Below are positions 44,596-54,825 of a stretch of DNA of 64,000 bases, one piece after another (positions within the stretch are counted from its first letter, which is position 1; each line of letters begins with the position of its first letter). Origin of the DNA: Mobula hypostoma (taxonomy: Eukaryota); NCBI RefSeq assembly GCF_963921235.1, contig NC_086097.1:102054001-102118000 (forward strand), given 5' to 3'. The translations under genes and the position numbers were made by a program. The notes beneath the pieces were generated by a model. It was not told the DNA's origin, did no database searches, and worked only from the letters and a program-made list of their open reading frames with translations.

Positions 44596-47500
44596 CGTCG
44601 TCGTCATGGCTATCCTTCAAGGTTGAGGAGGATGGTCTTCGCTCTGTTGATCTACTTATGGGCTCTCAAGTGGCTTATGAGTCCAATCTTGGCTTTGAAA
44701 GTTCTTCCGCATCCAGGACAGGTAGTTCTAGATGGCAGATCGAGTTTTGGTTGTTGCTGCCTCTTTCCATTTGCTTCTCTTTTCTTCTAATTCTGCACAT
44801 CTGTTGGCTTCGAAATTTGCTGTTCCTTCTTGGATGATGGCTTGCCAGAGTCTCCTGTCCTTGGCATTGGTTTCCCAATTGTTGATGTCGATGTTACATT
44901 TCTTCATGTTGGCTTTTAAGACGTCTTTGAATCTCTTCTGTTGTCTGCCTCTTTTACATTTGCCTTCTTTAAGCTGGGAGTAGAAGATTTGTTTCGGCAG
45001 ATGTTCGTCCTTCATCCGAACAACATGACCTCTCCATCTCAGTAGGTTCTTGATGACGTAAGCTTCAATGCTTGTTGTTTTTGCTTCACTTAGCACACTG
45101 ACGTTGGTTCTTCTATCTTCCCAGGTGATATTTAAGATGATTCGAAGACAGCGTTGATGGAACTTTTCAAGTGCCTTCAGATGTCATCGGTATGTTGTCC
45201 AGGTTTCTGATGCATACAGGAGCGCTGGGATTATCACTGCTTTGTACACTAACATTTTTGTGTCTGTTCAGATGTCACGATCATGAAAGACTCGGAGATG
45301 TCCAAAAGCTGTTCCAGAACATTGGAGGAGAGTTGACTTCCAAGATATGGAAAGTGGTCCATGTTTTCCAGGGTTATTTCGCCAAGTTGAATTGATGGTT
45401 CTATCAGATTTGTCTCAGTTGGTGACAGTTGATAGGTGATCTGAGTCTTCTTGGCAAGTCCAAGTTTTGTGTATGCACGGTTGAAGGCAGCCAGAATCTG
45501 TTGTAGGTGGTTTTCTGACAGAGCTGCAACACTGTTGTCATCTGCGTATTGGAACTCGATGAGGGAACTCGTGGATGTCCTCGTTTTGGACTTGAGACGG
45601 GCAAGATTGAAAAGTCTGCCATCTGTCCTGTTTCGATTCCCGGGAGTAGGTCGTCCTTGATAATGTGGATGATTGTCACAATAAAGATGGTGAACAAAGT
45701 TGGGGCAATCATGCATCCCTGTTTTACTCCTGATCTAACTTGAAAAGGCACACAGTTACTATTGCTGACCATGACTGTGGCAAGCTTGCCATCGTGGAGG
45801 AGTCTCAGGATTCGAATGTACTTTTCAGGGCATCCATAGGTGGATAGGACATCCCATAGGAGTTCCCTTCATACCAAGTCAAAGGCCTTGGTGAGGTTGA
45901 TGAATGCCATGTACAAAGGTTGAAGTTGTTCACAACATTTTTCTTGTAGTTGTCGCATTGTGAAGATCATGTCGATTGCTCGACGTCTTGGTCTAAAACC
46001 GGCTTGTGTCTCCGGAAGGATCTTCTGGCCTAAAGGCTTGAGCCGGTTGTTCATGATGCGGGTGAGGATCTTTCCTGCTGTTGCTAACAGGAAATTCCAC
46101 GATAGTTTCCGCATTTGGATCGATTGCCTTTCCTTTTGTAGATGGTAACGATTGCTGAGTCTCTAAAGTCTGTTGGTACGTCTTCATTTATCCAGATCTT
46201 GATGAGAAGTTGATTACCTCCAATTTTGTAGACCTCAGCTGGTATTCCATCGAGTCCAGCTGCCTTGTTGTTTTTCAAGGTTTTGATAGCTTCCTTGACT
46301 TCTTCAAGTGTTGGTATTTTGCTTAGTGAGTTGTCAACCGGCTGTTTTGGAATGTTGTTAATCACATTCCTGTCAAATGAGACGGTTTGATTTGGAAGAT
46401 CTTCAAAGTGCTCCTTCCATCTAGAATTGATGTCAGCATTGCTCTTCAGGATGGTTGAACCATCTTTGCTTTTGCGAGGGGCTTGACCGTGAGTGGATGG
46501 GCCAAAAATAGCTTTAGTTGTGTTGAAAAAGCCTCGAGTGTTGTTGGTGTCTGCTAGTTGTTGGATTTCCTGAGCTTTCTTCTTCCACCATTGTTTTTTC
46601 AGGTTTTGGGTGCTCTTCTGGACTGCAGCTTTGCATTCCTGATAGCATTTCCTTTTGGTAGCCAATTTTTGGTCATTTTGTAAGGAAATGAAAGCTTTTC
46701 TCTTTTCGTCGATGAGTTGTTGGAGCAGTTTGTCATTATCATCGAACCAATCCTGATGTTTTTTCATCTTGAACCCAATTGTTTCTTTGCAGGAGGTGAT
46801 GATAGCATTCTTCAATTGATTCCAGTGTTCTTCTACAGATGGTGGGATTTTTTGAGGCAGTTGTTCTTGAAGATTTTGTTGGAACTTCTGTACATGGCTG
46901 ATGTCTTGAAGGATGTCAACATTAAATTTCTTAGTAGTGTTCTGATTTTGGTGTTTCCTTTTAGGCCGAAACTTCATTTTCATGGTGGATGAGATGAGTC
47001 GATGGTCTGTCCAGCACTCGTCGGCACCAGTAACAGCTCTTGTTATCAGTACATCTTGTTGGTCCCAAGATCATACGATGATGTAGTTGATGAGGTGCCA
47101 GTGTTTGGAGCATGGATGGTGCCAGGAGACTTTGTGCCTGTTTTCCTGGCGAAATAGGGTGTTTGTAATCACCAGGTTGTGTTCAGCACATTTGGTGAGG
47201 AGGAGTGTTCCATTGGCGTTGACCTTGCCAACTCCTTCTTTGCTTATTATTCCAGTCCAGAGCCCATGATCTTTCCCAACTCTGGCATTGAAGTCTCCCA
47301 AGAGAATGATCTTGTCGTTCTTGGGAACAGAGGAGAGGATGTGGTCAAGTTGGGCGTAGAAGTTCATCTTTACTTCGTGGCGTGTTGGTTCATGACAAGT
47401 TGGATTCACAGAGTCATGAGACGTTGGTTGATTCCCAGTGGTTGCTCTGTCAGCTTCTGAAGTAGGCTGTTTCAGATGGCAAAACCTACTTCATGGATCC

Positions 47501-47784
47501 TCAGTTGTTCAGGATCAAGTCCTTTCCAGAAAAAGGTGTATTGACCTTGCTCTTCCTTTAGTTGCCCTTCTCCAGCTCTGCGGGTCTCACTCAGAGCAAC
47601 AATGTCAAAGTTGAAGTTTTGGAGTTCCTTGGCAACAAAGGCAGTCCTCCTCTCTGGTCGGTCTGAGTTTGGGTTATCCATCAGAGTTAAAAACATAGAA
47701 ACATAGAAAATAGGTGCAGGAGTAGGCCATTCGGCCCTTCGAGCCTGCATCGCCATTTATTATGATCATAGCTGATCATCCAAC

Positions 47785-50700
47785 TCAGAACCCCACCCCA
47801 GCCTTCCCTCCATACCCCCTGATCCCTGTAGCCACAAGGGCCATATCTAACTCCCTCTTAAACATAGCCAATGAACTGGCCTCAACAGTTTGCTGTGGCA
47901 GAGAATTCCACAGATTCACCACTCTCTGTGTGAAGAAGTTTTTCCTAATCTTGGTCCTAAAAGGCTTCCCCTCTATCCTCAAACTGTGACCCCTCGTTCT
48001 GGACTTCCCCAACATCGGGAACAATCTTCCTGCATCTAGCCTGTCCAATCCCTTTAGGATCTTATACGTTTCAATCAGATCCCCCCTCAATCTTCTAAAT
48101 TCCAACGAGTACAAGCCCAGTTCATCCAGTCTTTCTTCATATGAAAGTCCTGCCATCCCAGGAATCAATCTGGTGAACCTTCTTTGTACTCCCTCTATGA
48201 CAAAGATGTCTTTCCTCAGATTAGGGGACCAAAACTGCACACAATACTCCAGGTGTGGTCTCACCAAGGCCTTGTACAACTGCAGTAGTACCTCCCTGCT
48301 CCTGTACTCGAATCCTCTCGCTATAAATGCCAGCATACCATTCGCCTTTTTCACCGCCTGCTGTACCTGCATGCCCACTTTCAATGACTGGTGTATAATG
48401 ACACCCAGGTCTCGTTGCACCTCCCCTTTTCCTAATCGGCCACCATTCAGATAATAATCTGTTTTCCTATTTTTGCCACCAAAGTGGATAACTTCACATT
48501 TATCCACATTAAATTGCATCTGCCATGAGTTTGCCCACTCACCCAACCTATCCAAGTCACCCTGCATCCTCTTAGCATCCTCCTCACTGCTAACACTGCC
48601 ACCCAGCTTCGTGTCATCCGCAAACTTGGAGATGCTGCATTTAATTCCCTCATCCAAGTCATTAATATATATTGTAAACAACTGAGGTCCCAGCACTGAG
48701 CCTTGCGGTACCCCACCAGTCACCGCCTGCCATTCTGAAAAGGTCCCGTTTATTCCCACTCTTTGCTTCCTGTCTGCTAACCAATTCTCCACCCACACCA
48801 ATACCTTACCCCCAATACCGTGTGCTTTAAGTTTGCACACTAATCTCCTGTGTGGGACCTTGTCAAAAGCCTTTTGAAAATCCAAATATACCACATCCAC
48901 TGGTTCTCCCCTATCCGCTCTACTAGTTACATCCTCAAAAAATTCTATGAGATTCGTCAGACATGATTTTCCTTTTACAAATCCATGCTGACTTTGTCCG
49001 ATCATTTCACCGCTTTCCAAATGTGCTGTTATCACATCCTTGATAACTGACTCCAGCAGTTTCCCCACCACCGACGTTAGGCTAACCGGTCTATAATTCC
49101 CCGGTTTCTCTCTCCCTCCTTTTTTAAAAAGTGGGGTTACATTAGCCACCCTCCAATCCTCAGGAACTAGTCCAGAATCTAACGAGTTTTGAAAAATTAT
49201 CACTAATGCATCCACTATTTCTTGGGCTACTTCCTTAAGCACTCTAGGATGCAAACCATCTGGCCCTGGGGATTTATCTGCCTTCAATCCCTTCAATTTA
49301 CCTAACACCACTTCCCTACTAACATGTATTTCACTCAGTTCCTCCATCTCACTGGACCCTCTGTCCCTTACTATTTCTGGAAGATTATTTATGTCCTCCT
49401 TAGTGAAGACAGAACCAAAGTAATTATTCAATTGGTCTGCCATGTCCTTGCTCCCCATAATCAATTCACCTGTTTCTGTCTGCAGGGGACCTACATTTGT
49501 CTTTACCAGTCTTTTCCTTTTTACATATCTATAAAAGCTTTTACAGTCCGTTTTTATGTTCCCTGCCAGTTTTCTCTCATAATCTTTTTTCCCCTTCCTA
49601 ATTAAGCCCTTTGTCCTCCTCTGCTGAACTCTGAATTTCTCCCAGTCCTCAGGTGAGCCACTTTCTCTGGCTAATTTGTATGCTACTTCTTTGGAATTGA
49701 TACTATCCCTAATTTCTCTTGTCAGCCATGGGTGCACTACCTTCCTTGATTTATTCTTTTGCCAAACTGGGATGAACAATTGTTGTAGTTCATCCATGCA
49801 ACCTTTAAATGCTTGCCATTGCATATCCACCGTCAATCCTTTAAGTGTCATTTGCCAGTCTATCTTAGCTAATTCACGTCTCATACCTTCAAAGTTACCC
49901 CTCTTTAAGTTCAGAACCTTTGTTTCTGAATTAACTATGTCACTCTCCATATTAATGAGGAATTCCACCATATTACGGTCACTCTTACCCAAGGGGCCTC
50001 TCACGACAAGATCGCTAATTAACCCTTCCTCATTGCTCAAAACCCAGTCCAGAATAGCCTGCTCTCTAGTTGGTTCCTCGACATGTTGGTTCAAAAAACC
50101 ATCCCGCATACATTCCAAGAAATCCTCTTCCTCAGCACCTTTACCAATTTGGTTCACCCAGTCTACATATAGATTGAAGTCACCCATTATAACTGCTGTT
50201 CCTTTATTGCACACATTTCTAATTTCCTGTTTAATACCATCTCCGACCTCACTACTACTGTTAGGTGGCCTGTACACAACTCCCACCAGCGTCTTCTGCC
50301 CCTTAGTGTTACGCAGCTCTACCCATATCGATTCCACATCTTCCCGGCTTATGTCCTTCCTTTCTATTGCGCTAATCTCTTCTTTAACCAGCAACGCCAC
50401 CCCACCTCCCCTTCCTTCATGTCTATCCCTCCTGAATATTGAATATCCCTGAACGTTGAGCTCCCATCCCTGGTCACCCTGGAGCCATGTCTCTGTGATC
50501 CCAACTATATCATAATCATTAATAACAATCTGCACTTTCAATTTCATTCACCTTATTACGAATGCTCCTTGCATTGACACACAAAGCCTTCAGGCGCTCT
50601 TTTACAACTCTCTTAGCCCTTATACAATTATGTTGAAAAGTGGCCCTTTTTAATGCTTGCCCTGGATTTGTCGGCCTGCCACTTTTACTTTTCTCCTTTG

Positions 50701-50827
50701 TACTTTTTGCTTCTACCCTCACTTTACACCCCTCTGTCTTTCTGCACTGGTTCCCATCCCTCTGTTGTGAACTAACCTCCTCACGCCTAGCCTCTTTAAT
50801 TTGATTCCCACCCCCCAACCATTCTAG
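47785..50827 (-). CDS. CR1 ORF2p: APE endonuclease plus reverse transcriptase, one +1 frameshift at about 50542
   Basis: ORF 50519..50818 (LCVNARSIRNKVNE) joins ORF 47785..50547 (LKVQIVINDYDIVGITETW...GDFN...QGSVLGP...FADD) if one A is removed. Confidence 0.9.
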
Positions 50828-51759
50828 TTTAAAGTCACCTCAGTAGCCCCCGCTAATCTCTCTGCCAGGATATTGGTCCCCCTAGGATTCAAGTGTAACC
50901 CGTCCTTTTTGTACAGATCACGCCTGCGCCAAAAGAGGTCCCAATGATCCAAAAACTTGAATCCCTGCCCCCTGCTCCAATCCCGCAGCCACGCATTTAT
51001 CCTCCACCTCATCGCATTCCTACTCTTACTGTCGCGTGGCACAGGCAGTAATCCCAAGATTACTACCTTTGCGGTCCTTTTTCTCAACTCCCTTCCGAGC
51101 TCCCTATATTCTCCTTTCAGGACCTCATCCCTTTTCCTACCTATGTCATTGGTACCTATATGTACCACGACCTCTGGCTCCTCACCCTCCCACTTCAGGA
51201 TATCTTGGACACGATCAGAAATATCCCGGACCCTGGCACCAGGGAGGCAAACTACCATCCAGGTCTCTGGACTGCGTCCACAGAATCGCCTATCTGACCC
51301 CCTTACTATCGAGTCCCCTATCACAACTGCCCTCCTCTTCCTTGCTCTACCCTTGTGAGCTACAGGGCCGGACTCTGTGCCGGAGGCACGGCCACTGTCG
51401 CTTCCCCCGGGTAAGCTGTCCCCCCCAACAGTACTCAAACAGGAGTACCTGTTGTTAAGGGGCACAGCCACCGGGGTACTCCCCATCACCTGACTTTTCC
51501 CCTTCCCCCTCCTAGCCGTGACCCACTTGTCTGCCTCCCGTGGCCCCGGCGTGACCACCTGCCTTCCACTCCTCTCTATCACCTCCTCGCTCTCCCTGAC
51601 CAGACGAAGGTCATCGAGCTTCAGCTCCAGTTCCGTAACGCGGTACCTTAGGAGCTGCATCTCGATGCACTTGGCGCAGATGTAGACGTCCGGGAGGCTT
51701 GGAGACTCCAGGGCCTCCCACATCCGACACCGAGAACAGCAAACTGCCCTCACAGTCAT
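50824..51759 (-). CDS. CR1 ORF1p (311 aa): CxxC..CxxC zinc finger/coiled coil plus SGNH esterase
   Basis: CSRC...CAKC, heptad leucines, VIGDSIVR, HIGTNDI, DGLHLN. First ATG at 51759. Confidence 0.92.
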   Translation of the reverse strand: MTVRAVCCSRCRMWEALESPSLPDVYICAKCIEMQLLRYRVTELELKLDDLRLVRESEEVIERSGRQVVTPGPREADKWVTARRGKGKSQVMGSTPVAVPLNNRYSCLSTVGGDSLPGGSDSGRASGTESGPVAHKGRARKRRAVVIGDSIVRGSDRRFCGRSPETWMVVCLPGARVRDISDRVQDILKWEGEEPEVVVHIGTNDIGRKRDEVLKGEYRELGRELRKRTAKVVILGLLPVPRDSKSRNAMRWRINAWLRDWSRGQGFKFLDHWDLFWRRRDLYKKDGLHLNPRGTNILAERLAGATEVTLN

Positions 51760-51799
51760 AACGCCCCTCTCCTCAAATAGCAACAGAAAATGAATGTCA

Positions 51800-52069
51800 A
51801 ACCTTCCTCGCCTCGCCCGCTTCCGCCTAAGCCCGGTGAGCCGAAGCCCTTAAGCCTTCACTCTGCTCCCGGCTCACTCCGTAGCCCGCAAACTACGCTG
51901 CCTGCTCTATGAGGCTTTGTTCCTTTTAAATCTGCCGCGCTGCACTGCCCGACGTCACACGCCTGCGCAGTCCCGCCTCTCAGAAAGCCGTTGGAGAAAA
52001 AAAATCACGAAAATTTCAAAAATGTCTTTCTCGGCACTCCCACTCAGACTGTCAGACTCCTTCTTCGAA
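51800..52069 (-). promoter_or_regulatory. Putative CR1 internal promoter (CpG-rich)
   Basis: GC-box-like 51971-51979, NRF1-like TGCGCAGGCG about 51960-51969, CRE-like TGACGTC 51951-51957, TTTAAAA 51924-51930, ETS-like CGGAAG 51820-51825. Motif matches only. Confidence 0.5.
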
Positions 52070-52779
52070 TCGTACATTCCAGGTTCCAAATTTCATAGTT
52101 TCAGTTCGCGATGTTTTTCGACCACATGATGGTGATCCCTCTGGACGCGGCTTTCTATACAGGATGGGGTGAAACAGACTATTTTTAGGGCACCTTTTCT
52201 AGACCCTTCCCAGCTCAGGATCCTAAATAGGGCTGCTCAGGTGTGAATACTGCTGCCGAACAACTATCCTGCTTCTGTCCAAAAGTTGAGCGACTGAATC
52301 AAGTATTCACCGCTTTTGTGCTGGTACTTGACTAGGAGCTTCCAGCCATCACATTGCCTGCTCCCATCGCCCTCCCTGATCGCCAAAAGACTTGAAGAAG
52401 TGGCCCACAGAGCAAAGATGCCTGTGCATGTATTTGTTTAAAGTGTACTTGATGTTACACTCCAAGAAGCACACGATACTTCATCAACTGATTCCAATGG
52501 CATGGAAACCACGAGGATTAGAGCTGATGGATTTGTTGCAGCCTTCATCCGCCTTCACAGCATAATCTAATTACCATGTATCTGTTGTGAAACAAATGTA
52601 GAAACACTGGTGAATGTACAGAAATCATTTGCGTGCAAAATTAGAGCTGAGAGGTTATAATCATTAAAAACAGGTTAAATGAGGTGGGTCACCAGATAAC
52701 TGATGATCAAAGGATGGCTTTATACAATATCTTGTACCTCAGACTTGTAATGAAAAAGGAAGCCATCAGATTGATTCAA

Positions 52780-54825
52780 AGCAACACCCACAAAATGCTG
52801 CTGGAATAACTGAGCAGGTTAGACAGCATCTATGGAAATGAATAAGCAGTTGACATTTTGGGCCAAGATGCTTCTTCAGGACTGGAAAGAAAGGGAGAAG
52901 ATGCTAGAATAAAATGGGGGGTGGGTGGGGGAAGGAGGCTAGCTAGAAGGTGATAGGTGAAGCCAGGTGGTAGGAAAGATAAAGGGCTGGAGAAAAAGGA
53001 ATCTGATGGGAGAGGAGAGTGGGCCACAGGAGAAAGGGAAAGGAGGACCAGACCCAAGGGGGAGTGATAGGCAGGTGAGAAGAGGCAAGAGGCCAGAGTG
53101 GGGAATTACCAGAAGGAGAAATTGATATTCATATCATCAGGTTGGAAGCTCCCCAGGAGGAAGGTGTTGCTCCTCCACCTGGAGGGCAGCCTCATCGTGG
53201 CACAAGAGGAGGCCATGGACCGACATGTCAGAACGGGAAAGGGAATTGGAATTAAAATGTGGGTGTGATCTGTATAGATTTTAGTAAGGCATTTGACAAG
53301 GTTCCACACGGTAGGCTTATTCAGAAAGTCAGAAGGCATGGGATCCAGGGAAGTTCGGCCAGGTGGATTCAGAATTGGTTTGCCTGCAGAAGGCAGAGGG
53401 TCGTGGTGGAGGGAATATATTCAAACTGGAGGGCTGTGACTAGTGGTGTCCCACAAGGGTCGGTTCTGGGACCTTTACTTTTCGTGATTTTTATTAACGA
53501 CCCGGATGTGGGGGTAGAAGGGTGGGTTGGCAAGTTTGCAGACGACACAAAGGTTGGTGGTGTTGTAGATAGTGTAGAGGATTGCCGAAGATTGCAGAGA
53601 GACATTAATAGGATGCAGAAGTGGGCTGAGAAGTGGCAGATGGAGTTCAACCCGGAGAAGTGTGAGGTGGTACACTTTGGAAGGACAAACTCCAAGGCAG
53701 AGTACAAAGTAAATGGCAGGATACTTAGTAGTGTGGAAGAGCAGAGGGATCTGGGGGTACATGTCCACAGATCCCTGAAAGTTACCTCCCAGGTAGATAG
53801 GGTAGTTAAGAATTTTAGGAAAGCTTAATGGGGTGTTAGCTTTCATAAGTCGAGGGATAGAGTTTAAGAGTCACGAGGTAATGATACAGCTCTATAAAAC
53901 TCTGGTTAGGCCACACTGTGTCCAGTGCTGGTTACTTCACTATAGGAAGGATGTGGAAGCATTGGAAAGGATACAGAGGAGATTTACCAGGATGCTGCCT
54001 GGTTTAGAGAGTATGCATCATGATCAGAGATTAAGGGAGCTAGGGCTTTACTCTTTGGAGAGAAGGAGGATGAGAGGAGACATGATAGAGGTATACAAGA
54101 TATTAAGAGGAATAGATAGAGTGGATAGCTACCGCCTCTTCCCCAGGGCACCACTGCTCAATACAAGAGGACATGGCTTTAAGATAAGGGGTGGGAAGTT
54201 CAAGGGGGATATTAGAGGAAGGTTTTTTATTCAGAGTGGTCGGTGCGTGGAATGCACTGCCTGAGTCAGTGGTGGAGACAGATACAGTAGTGAAATTTAA
54301 GAGACTACCAGACAGGTATATGGAGGAATTTAAGGTGGGGGGTTATATGGGAGGCAGAGTTTGAGGGTCGGCACAACATTGTGGGCCGAAGGGCCTGTAC
54401 TGTGCTGTACTGTTCTATGTTCTAAAATGTTTGGCTGTTGAGAAGTTCAGCTTTTGGCAGATGGAGCAGAGGTGCTGAATGAAGTGATCCCCCAATTTGC
54501 AACGGGTCTGACCAATGTAGAGGAGGCCACATTGGGAGCATCAGACACAATAGATGATCCCAGCAGATTCACAGGTGAAGTGTTGCTTCACTTAAAAGGA
54601 CTGTTTGGGGCCCTGAACGGAAGTGAATGGGCAGGTTGTGGCACTTTGGCTGCTTGTAGGGATAAATGCCAGGAGGGAGATTAGTGGGGAGGGGCGAATG
54701 GACAAGGGAATCATAGAGGGAGCGATCCCTATGAAAAGCTGGTGCAAGGTGGGGGTGTAAGGATATGTTTGGCAAGAGGTCCCTTTGGAGATAGCAGAAG
54801 TTGCGGAGAGTAATGTGTTGGGTAC
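52780..54825 (-). mobile_element. Penelope-like fragment split by a CR1
   Basis: GSFQPDDMNINFSFW (ORF 53106..53339) and AFHRDRSLYDSLVHS (ORF 54569..54775). Decayed HHR tail at about 52848-52885. Confidence 0.8.
53261..54422 (+). mobile_element. 5'-truncated CR1 with an 8-bp TSD
   Basis: ORFs 53259..53828 and 53833..54264. TAAAATGT at 53253-53260 and 54423-54430. Confidence 0.92.

Follow-up and report, generated by a model that had tools for sequence, protein, structure and literature searches.

In coronavirus ORF1a/1b and retroviral gag-pol (PMC5009743; accession numbers denote here the excerpts of each publication on which we draw) the enzyme is encoded in the -1 frame, a slippery heptamer lies in the register of the upstream ORF, and that ORF ends soon after the site. 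The heptamer U_UUA_AAC is among the most shift-prone on mammalian ribosomes, and G_GGA_AAC is listed with it (PMC5009743). In the nsp2 -2/-1 shift of the arterivirus PRRSV a short, unstructured, low-complexity motif follows the shift site; it is C-rich, is bound by nsp1beta/PCBP, and is preceded by a spacer of 10 nt in the wild type, with an optimum of 9-11 nt (PMC4937337).

Among LINEs, human L1 (PMC2881922) and silkworm SART1 (PMC3708506), the two tested experimentally, make a bicistronic RNA in which ORF2 depends on translation of ORF1, and both reinitiate to give free ORF2p, SART1 having a UAAUG overlap. The view of LINE ORF2 translation is generalized from these two elements, and PMC3708506 calls that translation unclear. 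A -1 frameshift is stated for ORF2 of the APE-type LINEs TRE5-A and TRE3-A of Dictyostelium, where the shift is known from a review statement only (PMC5911963); the word frameshift is absent from the text of PMC3159450. For Paramecium LINEs +1 frameshifting or reinitiation has been suggested in the portions of the literature covered. In two-ORF Penelope-like elements ORF1 can be frameshift-separated from the reverse transcriptase, with a pseudoknot indicated (PMC8557442), and some Penelope-like elements carry the same esterase as CR1 ORF1 (PMC3905857).

No report of frameshifting in CR1 was found in the literature searched, a scope that leaves outside it the 1990s papers on chicken and turtle CR1 and the Repbase notes, which may mention the idea. 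Term searches gave no occurrence of frameshift in the main text of a 2026 CR1 survey, as far as it was covered, and none of CR1 in the first 300,000 of the 449,034 characters of the 2016 frameshifting review PMC5009743. In excerpts of other CR1 papers frameshifts are mentioned solely as mutational.

The CR1 LINE described here, an element abundant in vertebrates, has the U_UUA_AAC heptamer, identical to that of coronaviruses, in the register of ORF1 and the enzyme ORF in the -1 frame. In contrast to the coronavirus and gag-pol sites, no downstream hairpin or pseudoknot-like fold is predicted, the stop codon abuts the heptamer, and the element is a non-LTR retrotransposon in which no protease was detected. 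With PRRSV it shares the order of shift site, 10-nt spacer and short unstructured motif, but the motif is G-rich and not C-rich, the heptamer is another, the binder is only putative, and only the -1 frame reaches the enzyme. TRE5-A and TRE3-A are likewise APE-type LINEs, though of an unrelated clade and host. The bicistronic arrangement is shared with L1 and SART1, whereas the SART1-type overlap was found in one of nine CR1 lineages. Penelope-like elements belong to a different class.

Organization of the CR1 copy and its junction

The window is a stretch of 64,000 nt from Mobula hypostoma. The features of its CR1 copy are as follows; the nine lineages are those defined in the next section.

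47689..52070, minus strand: full-length CR1 LINE copy of about 4.38 kb (5' ends of sister copies at 52070-52071, 3' ends at about 47688)
51760..52070, minus strand: 5' UTR
50824..51759, minus strand: ORF1, 311 aa, from the ATG at 51759 to the stop at 50824, with a Cys zinc-finger-like N-terminus and an SGNH/GDSL esterase, ending EVTLN-stop
50840..50842, minus strand: in-frame TGA, two codons 5' of the heptamer codon, at which the ORF2 frame closes
50827..50833, minus strand: slippery heptamer U_UUA_AAC, invariant in nine of nine lineages
50824..50826, minus strand: stop codon of ORF1, abutting the heptamer on its 3' side, TAG in the window copy (TAA in five of nine lineages, TAG in four)
50817..50826, minus strand: 10-nt spacer of fixed length, made of the stop and seven variable bases (lineage table and published consensus rows)
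50807..50816, minus strand: conserved G-motif GGGGG-N-N-G(GG), a candidate frameshift stimulator (five G columns and one more G in nine of nine lineages)
50576..50826, minus strand: AUG-less, charged transframe linker to endonuclease motif I (NARS at 50575)
50541..50543, minus strand: private 1-nt insertion, near 50542, breaking ORF2 in the window copy (base absent from other runs)
47785..50547, minus strand: remainder of ORF2, APE endonuclease and reverse transcriptase, 920 codons open (Pfam PF03372 and PF00078)
47689..47784, minus strand: 3' UTR with a short hairpin and 8-nt terminal repeats (repeats in sister copies)

CR1-clade LINEs end in a hairpin and short tandem repeats instead of poly(A). 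The window element has a 3' end of this kind, without poly(A), together with an ORF2 encoding APE endonuclease and reverse transcriptase and an ORF1 with a Cys finger and SGNH esterase. The esterase was matched by Pfam PF13472 (E=1e-17), and the Cys columns are conserved. By eye, the regions around the junction are similar to rows that carry the label LINE/CR1 in the portion of the PMC13343379 supplement that was covered. A Pfam scan of the element found no protease domain, and a fusion protein would therefore have to work uncleaved.

The copy interrupts a decayed RTE-like LINE (52072-52100 and 44728-47688, minus strand) within endonuclease motif I; the flanks read MKFGTWNVR and TLMDNPNSDRPERRTA and join as MKFGTWNVR-TLMDN, and no clear target-site duplication was found at the insertion. 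Its 5' UTR contains a TTTAAAA word at about 51930-51920 (minus strand) preceded by a CRE-like TGACGTC, and two published shark CR1 rows have similar TTTAAA words in their 5' regions, in the excerpt covered. On the opposite strand a broken, 5'-truncated CR1-like reverse transcriptase fragment of a different family occupies 53256-54264 (plus strand).

ORF1 of the window copy ends GAG GTG ACT TTA AAC TAG, so that T TTA AAC stands in the X_XXY_YYZ register. From the heptamer the -1 frame reads FKLEWLGGGNQ and onward to LCVNARS, with Asn at codon 86 and no Met. The first-pass annotation had described this arrangement, and its particulars were borne out on reading the minus strand: the heptamer at 50833-50827 in the correct register with the stop at 50826-50824, the upstream TGA at 50842-50840 closing an ORF2 frame without ATG before LCVNARS, and a downstream G-run, here six G from 50816. 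The one nearby ATG (50822) belongs to the +1 frame and is followed by a stop after eight codons. Elsewhere in eight elements the heptamer occurred once in 31,128 nt; this rarity and its fixation at synonymous sites across lineages make it more than a chance occurrence.

The fusion of about 1,320 aa that had been predicted holds for the intact copies L090 and L092 (311 + 1013 = 1,324 aa) and fails for the window copy. The open -1 frame spans 1015 codons in L090 and L092 and 997 in L116. In the window copy it stays open for 104 codons only, and the other 920 lie in a different frame; because of its private insertion, which the first-pass annotation had missed, this copy is unable to make the full fusion.

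Conservation of the junction at the nucleotide level

A junction search of the genome G000 gave 1,974 candidates, of which 40 were scored and 30 taken, including the window copy. Heptamer and stop are kept in 28 of these 30, one has a Met before motif I, and in 20 the first Met is at codon 215, deep within the endonuclease. The 30 copies are 97-100% identical and therefore show ancestry, not selection. Eight families of the same genome (A to H) were assembled from searches with divergent ORF1 proteins together with 40 longer stretches; the linker and tail of family E served to separate it manually from B. A ninth lineage is the metagenome locus L061, with 34% ORF1 identity; it was one of three loci read among 18 from a metagenome scan, the other two (L062 and L083) being rejected. 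Among nine loci from a genome scan for distant relatives none was evidently CR1, and scans of viral sequences gave two weak loci. Over the last 230 nt of ORF1 the DNA identity between clusters is 59-79%. The nine observations are not independent, as the lineages are related and eight come from one genome, and L061 is the single locus of non-circular DNA evidence from other species. Several copies (L050, L106, L107, L120 and L127) look mosaic: their ORF1 end belongs to one family, their linker or 3' tail to a different one, which suggests recombination or template switching between CR1 families.

In a column table of the nine lineages, which excludes copies without TT and TA at the anchor, none of the seven heptamer columns varies, three synonymous positions among them, and neither does the TA of the stop. 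Five residues (A, G, T, H and D) occur at the codon preceding the Leu, yet its third base is always T. Other invariant Leu columns nearby use three to four codons, and Asn columns two. Taking all columns of ORF1 and ORF2 whose residue is invariant in at least seven lineages, a single codon is used in 2/82 six-codon, 2/96 four-codon and 17/131 two-codon columns; the two six-codon cases are L310 (TTA) and S284 (AGT). The four-codon cases are ORF1 T229 and G236, at about 51075 and 51054 (minus strand) and seven codons apart; this pair may mark another RNA element under constraint, or may be due to chance.

Heptamer and stop are retained in 71 of the 85 distinct G000 junctions. The 14 exceptions are single-base changes or deletions, and eight of them fall in the old, decayed family G. 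Synonymous variation of the heptamer, which the first-pass annotation had named as evidence against frameshifting, is fixed in none of the nine lineages, and the alignment of CR1 junctions that it had called for shows TTTAAAC-stop and the -1 phase kept in all of them. The heptamer thus lies in the ORF1 register, the -1 frame is open and coding, and synonymous sites are conserved, as at canonical -1 frameshift sites. Judged from these alignments the junction signal is real and under nucleotide-level selection.

A conserved G-motif at fixed distance

In all nine lineages GGGGG begins exactly 10 nt past the heptamer and is followed three columns on by one more G; the invariant G columns include synonymous positions of the -1 frame. 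Searching the PMC13343379 supplement by the G-motif alone gave at least nine rows in the portion covered, seven of CR1 and two of unrelated G-rich L2. The heptamer or its truncated end lies upstream in all seven CR1 rows, at 10 nt in six.

No pseudoknot had been recognized by eye in the first reading, and folding likewise gave no structure downstream of the heptamer: four local folds did not stand above shuffled sequences (z = 0.18 to 0.85), and no shared fold was present in representatives of the nine lineages, with folding tools that lack an explicit pseudoknot model. Long-range pairing with the 3' UTR of the luteovirus type was also considered and rejected. The 3' UTR was the best partner in 0/18 copies and there was no covariation; its pairing ranks in the top 1-2% of windows in family A and the top 23-33% in D and E. 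Families with different tails keep the same G-motif, which disfavours pairing with the far 3' end. Synthetic constructs show that quadruplexes can stimulate frameshifting (PMC5009743), but a two-tier form is predicted on the G-run in only three of the nine representatives, and we rejected a G-quadruplex as the general stimulator.

What is found is a conserved, unstructured motif at a fixed spacer of about 10 nt, as in the arterivirus. Given the lack of a local fold or 3' pairing and the PRRSV-like geometry, we infer that a bound factor is the likeliest stimulator, the adjacent stop adding a pause. That the G-run acts through a bound protein is a tentative choice, falling a little short of an even chance; a two-tier G-quadruplex or an unrecognized pairing would be the alternatives.

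Breadth across species

The esterase motif lies within 40 residues of the C-terminus in 76 of the 120 ORF1 homologues listed, and 70 of these 76 end in Leu-Asn. Named homologues come from rays, sharks, coelacanth, frogs, turtles, squamates and a bird. Immediately before LN, a residue that has no T-ending codon (E, K, Q, M or W) stands in only one of 79 proteins; by cluster the count is 0/24 against a background of 16% (p=0.014). A second clade of esterase-bearing ORF1 proteins (P0108, P0118 and P0124-P0145), one member of which bears the label snow crab, has xGN as its end in 15 of 24 cases (QGN in 12) and FFR in two. At the protein level the xGN ends are compatible with G_GGA_AAC, and the xGN and FFR ends suggest switches to other slippery heptamers.

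In the first 400 characters of the cells of the PMC13343379 supplement, at least 23 rows carry the heptamer followed by TA, 17 of them at ORF1 ends by eye; these rows were selected by the heptamer and are circular as evidence for it. The codes of the 17 were taken to stand for alligator, crocodile, bowfin, frog, chimaera, coelacanth, sharks, rays and, in a row labelled Crack, one teleost.

Natural in-frame fusions were looked for and set aside: there were three longer proteins, and the one ORF1-endonuclease join (P0121) looks like a single-copy accident or a gene model. Another CR1 ORF1 with an LN end and 59% identity to the query (P0024) has the database label Pseudomonas SGNH hydrolase, probably through contamination.

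Alternatives to frameshifting

The linker from heptamer to motif I is 35-110 codons long and varies in sequence by lineage, and it is in the -1 frame wherever the copy is intact. Termination and reinitiation of the L1 and SART1 type likewise predicts that the -1 frame is open from the stop. In that model the ribosome would restart in the -1 frame on a codon overlapping the ORF1 stop, independently of AUG; the heptamer and G-run would then act as a signal for reinitiation or be relics. This has the precedent of both LINEs tested, and human L1 ORF2 tolerates loss of its AUG (PMC5009743). An AUG upstream of the endonuclease had been named as a finding that would count against frameshifting. As a shared feature it is absent from five of the nine lineages (A, B, C, D and L061), while the single copies L049, L050 and L123 carry a Met before motif I; it is present in the other four, at positions that are not conserved (codon 18 in E, 38/41 in F, 15 in G and 3/19 in H), and in these four reinitiation could operate because of those AUGs. 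In family H (L115, L125 and L126) the ORF1 stop overlaps an in-frame ATG (UAAUG) after an intact heptamer, with an upstream in-frame ATG besides, and a published consensus labelled catshark has the same overlap in the excerpt covered. Family H could use both frameshifting and SART1-type reinitiation.

The overlap is absent, however, from the window copy and eight of the nine lineages, where the codon overlapping the stop is GAA, GAT, AAT or ATT. Reinitiation also leaves unexplained both the conservation of an in-register X_XXY_YYZ and the apparent change of heptamer in the second clade. The reinitiation signals of caliciviruses are located 5' of the stop, whereas the UGGGA-like word of the G-motif is 3' of it. 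Reinitiation is the main rival to frameshifting; we regard it as an improbable general route to ORF2.

ORF2 might instead be translated from a spliced or internally initiated RNA, the TTTAAA serving as a TATA-like box and the TAG as an acceptor; TTTAAA does occur in CR1 5' regions too, and CTAG is acceptor-like. But the stop is TAA, not TAG, in five of nine lineages, there is no polypyrimidine tract upstream of the junction, and 0/12 joints have canonical intron ends at the junction in contigs of four runs whose RNA status is a guess. A shorter RNA would still be AUG-less in five of nine lineages, and we consider this origin very unlikely.

That Leu-Asn is kept for the esterase fold, L310 and N311 being among the most conserved residues of ORF1, and that the heptamer is a coincidence of codon use, is scarcely credible: this reading is already largely refuted by the codon-use data above, including the fixed T of a variable preceding codon, and the second clade ends in GN instead.

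Proposed mechanism and its implications

Programmed -1 frameshifting at U_UUA_AAC, giving an ORF1p-linker-endonuclease-reverse transcriptase fusion of about 1,320 aa, is on the comparative sequence evidence the highly probable reading. The suggestion of the first-pass annotation that ORF2 is reached in this way is supported by the heptamer, stop and phase in all nine lineages. Most ribosomes would terminate at the ORF1 stop and yield abundant ORF1p. A minority would shift back by one base, with tRNA-Leu moving from UUA to UUU and tRNA-Asn from AAC to AAA, and would read on as EVTLN-LEWLGGG; the adjacent stop and the G-run 10 nt downstream would probably aid the slip. Placed just outside the mRNA entry channel, the G-run would stall the ribosome through a bound factor. 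The fusion would set the ratio of ORF1p to reverse transcriptase and, as with Gag-Pol, its ORF1p portion would bring it into the RNP.

It is possible, though we would not call it probable, that the reverse transcriptase of vertebrate CR1 elements, from cartilaginous fish to crocodilians, is produced as a Gag-Pol-like fusion to ORF1p, through a -1 shift switched on by a protein bound to the G-run. If so, CR1 would offer, within the genome, a G-rich counterpart to the protein-stimulated frameshift of arteriviruses, and the host or ORF1p would gain a translational switch over transposition. A structure-free G-motif at fixed spacing would point to a new class of frameshift stimulator.

The whole signal occupies about 30 nt and is directly testable. 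If frameshifting does operate, the CR1 enzyme would be a fusion to ORF1p made at a set ratio. Annotations of ORF2 that begin at the first Met (codon 215 in the window element) would then miss endonuclease motifs, and assays of CR1 retrotransposition would have to retain an intact junction.
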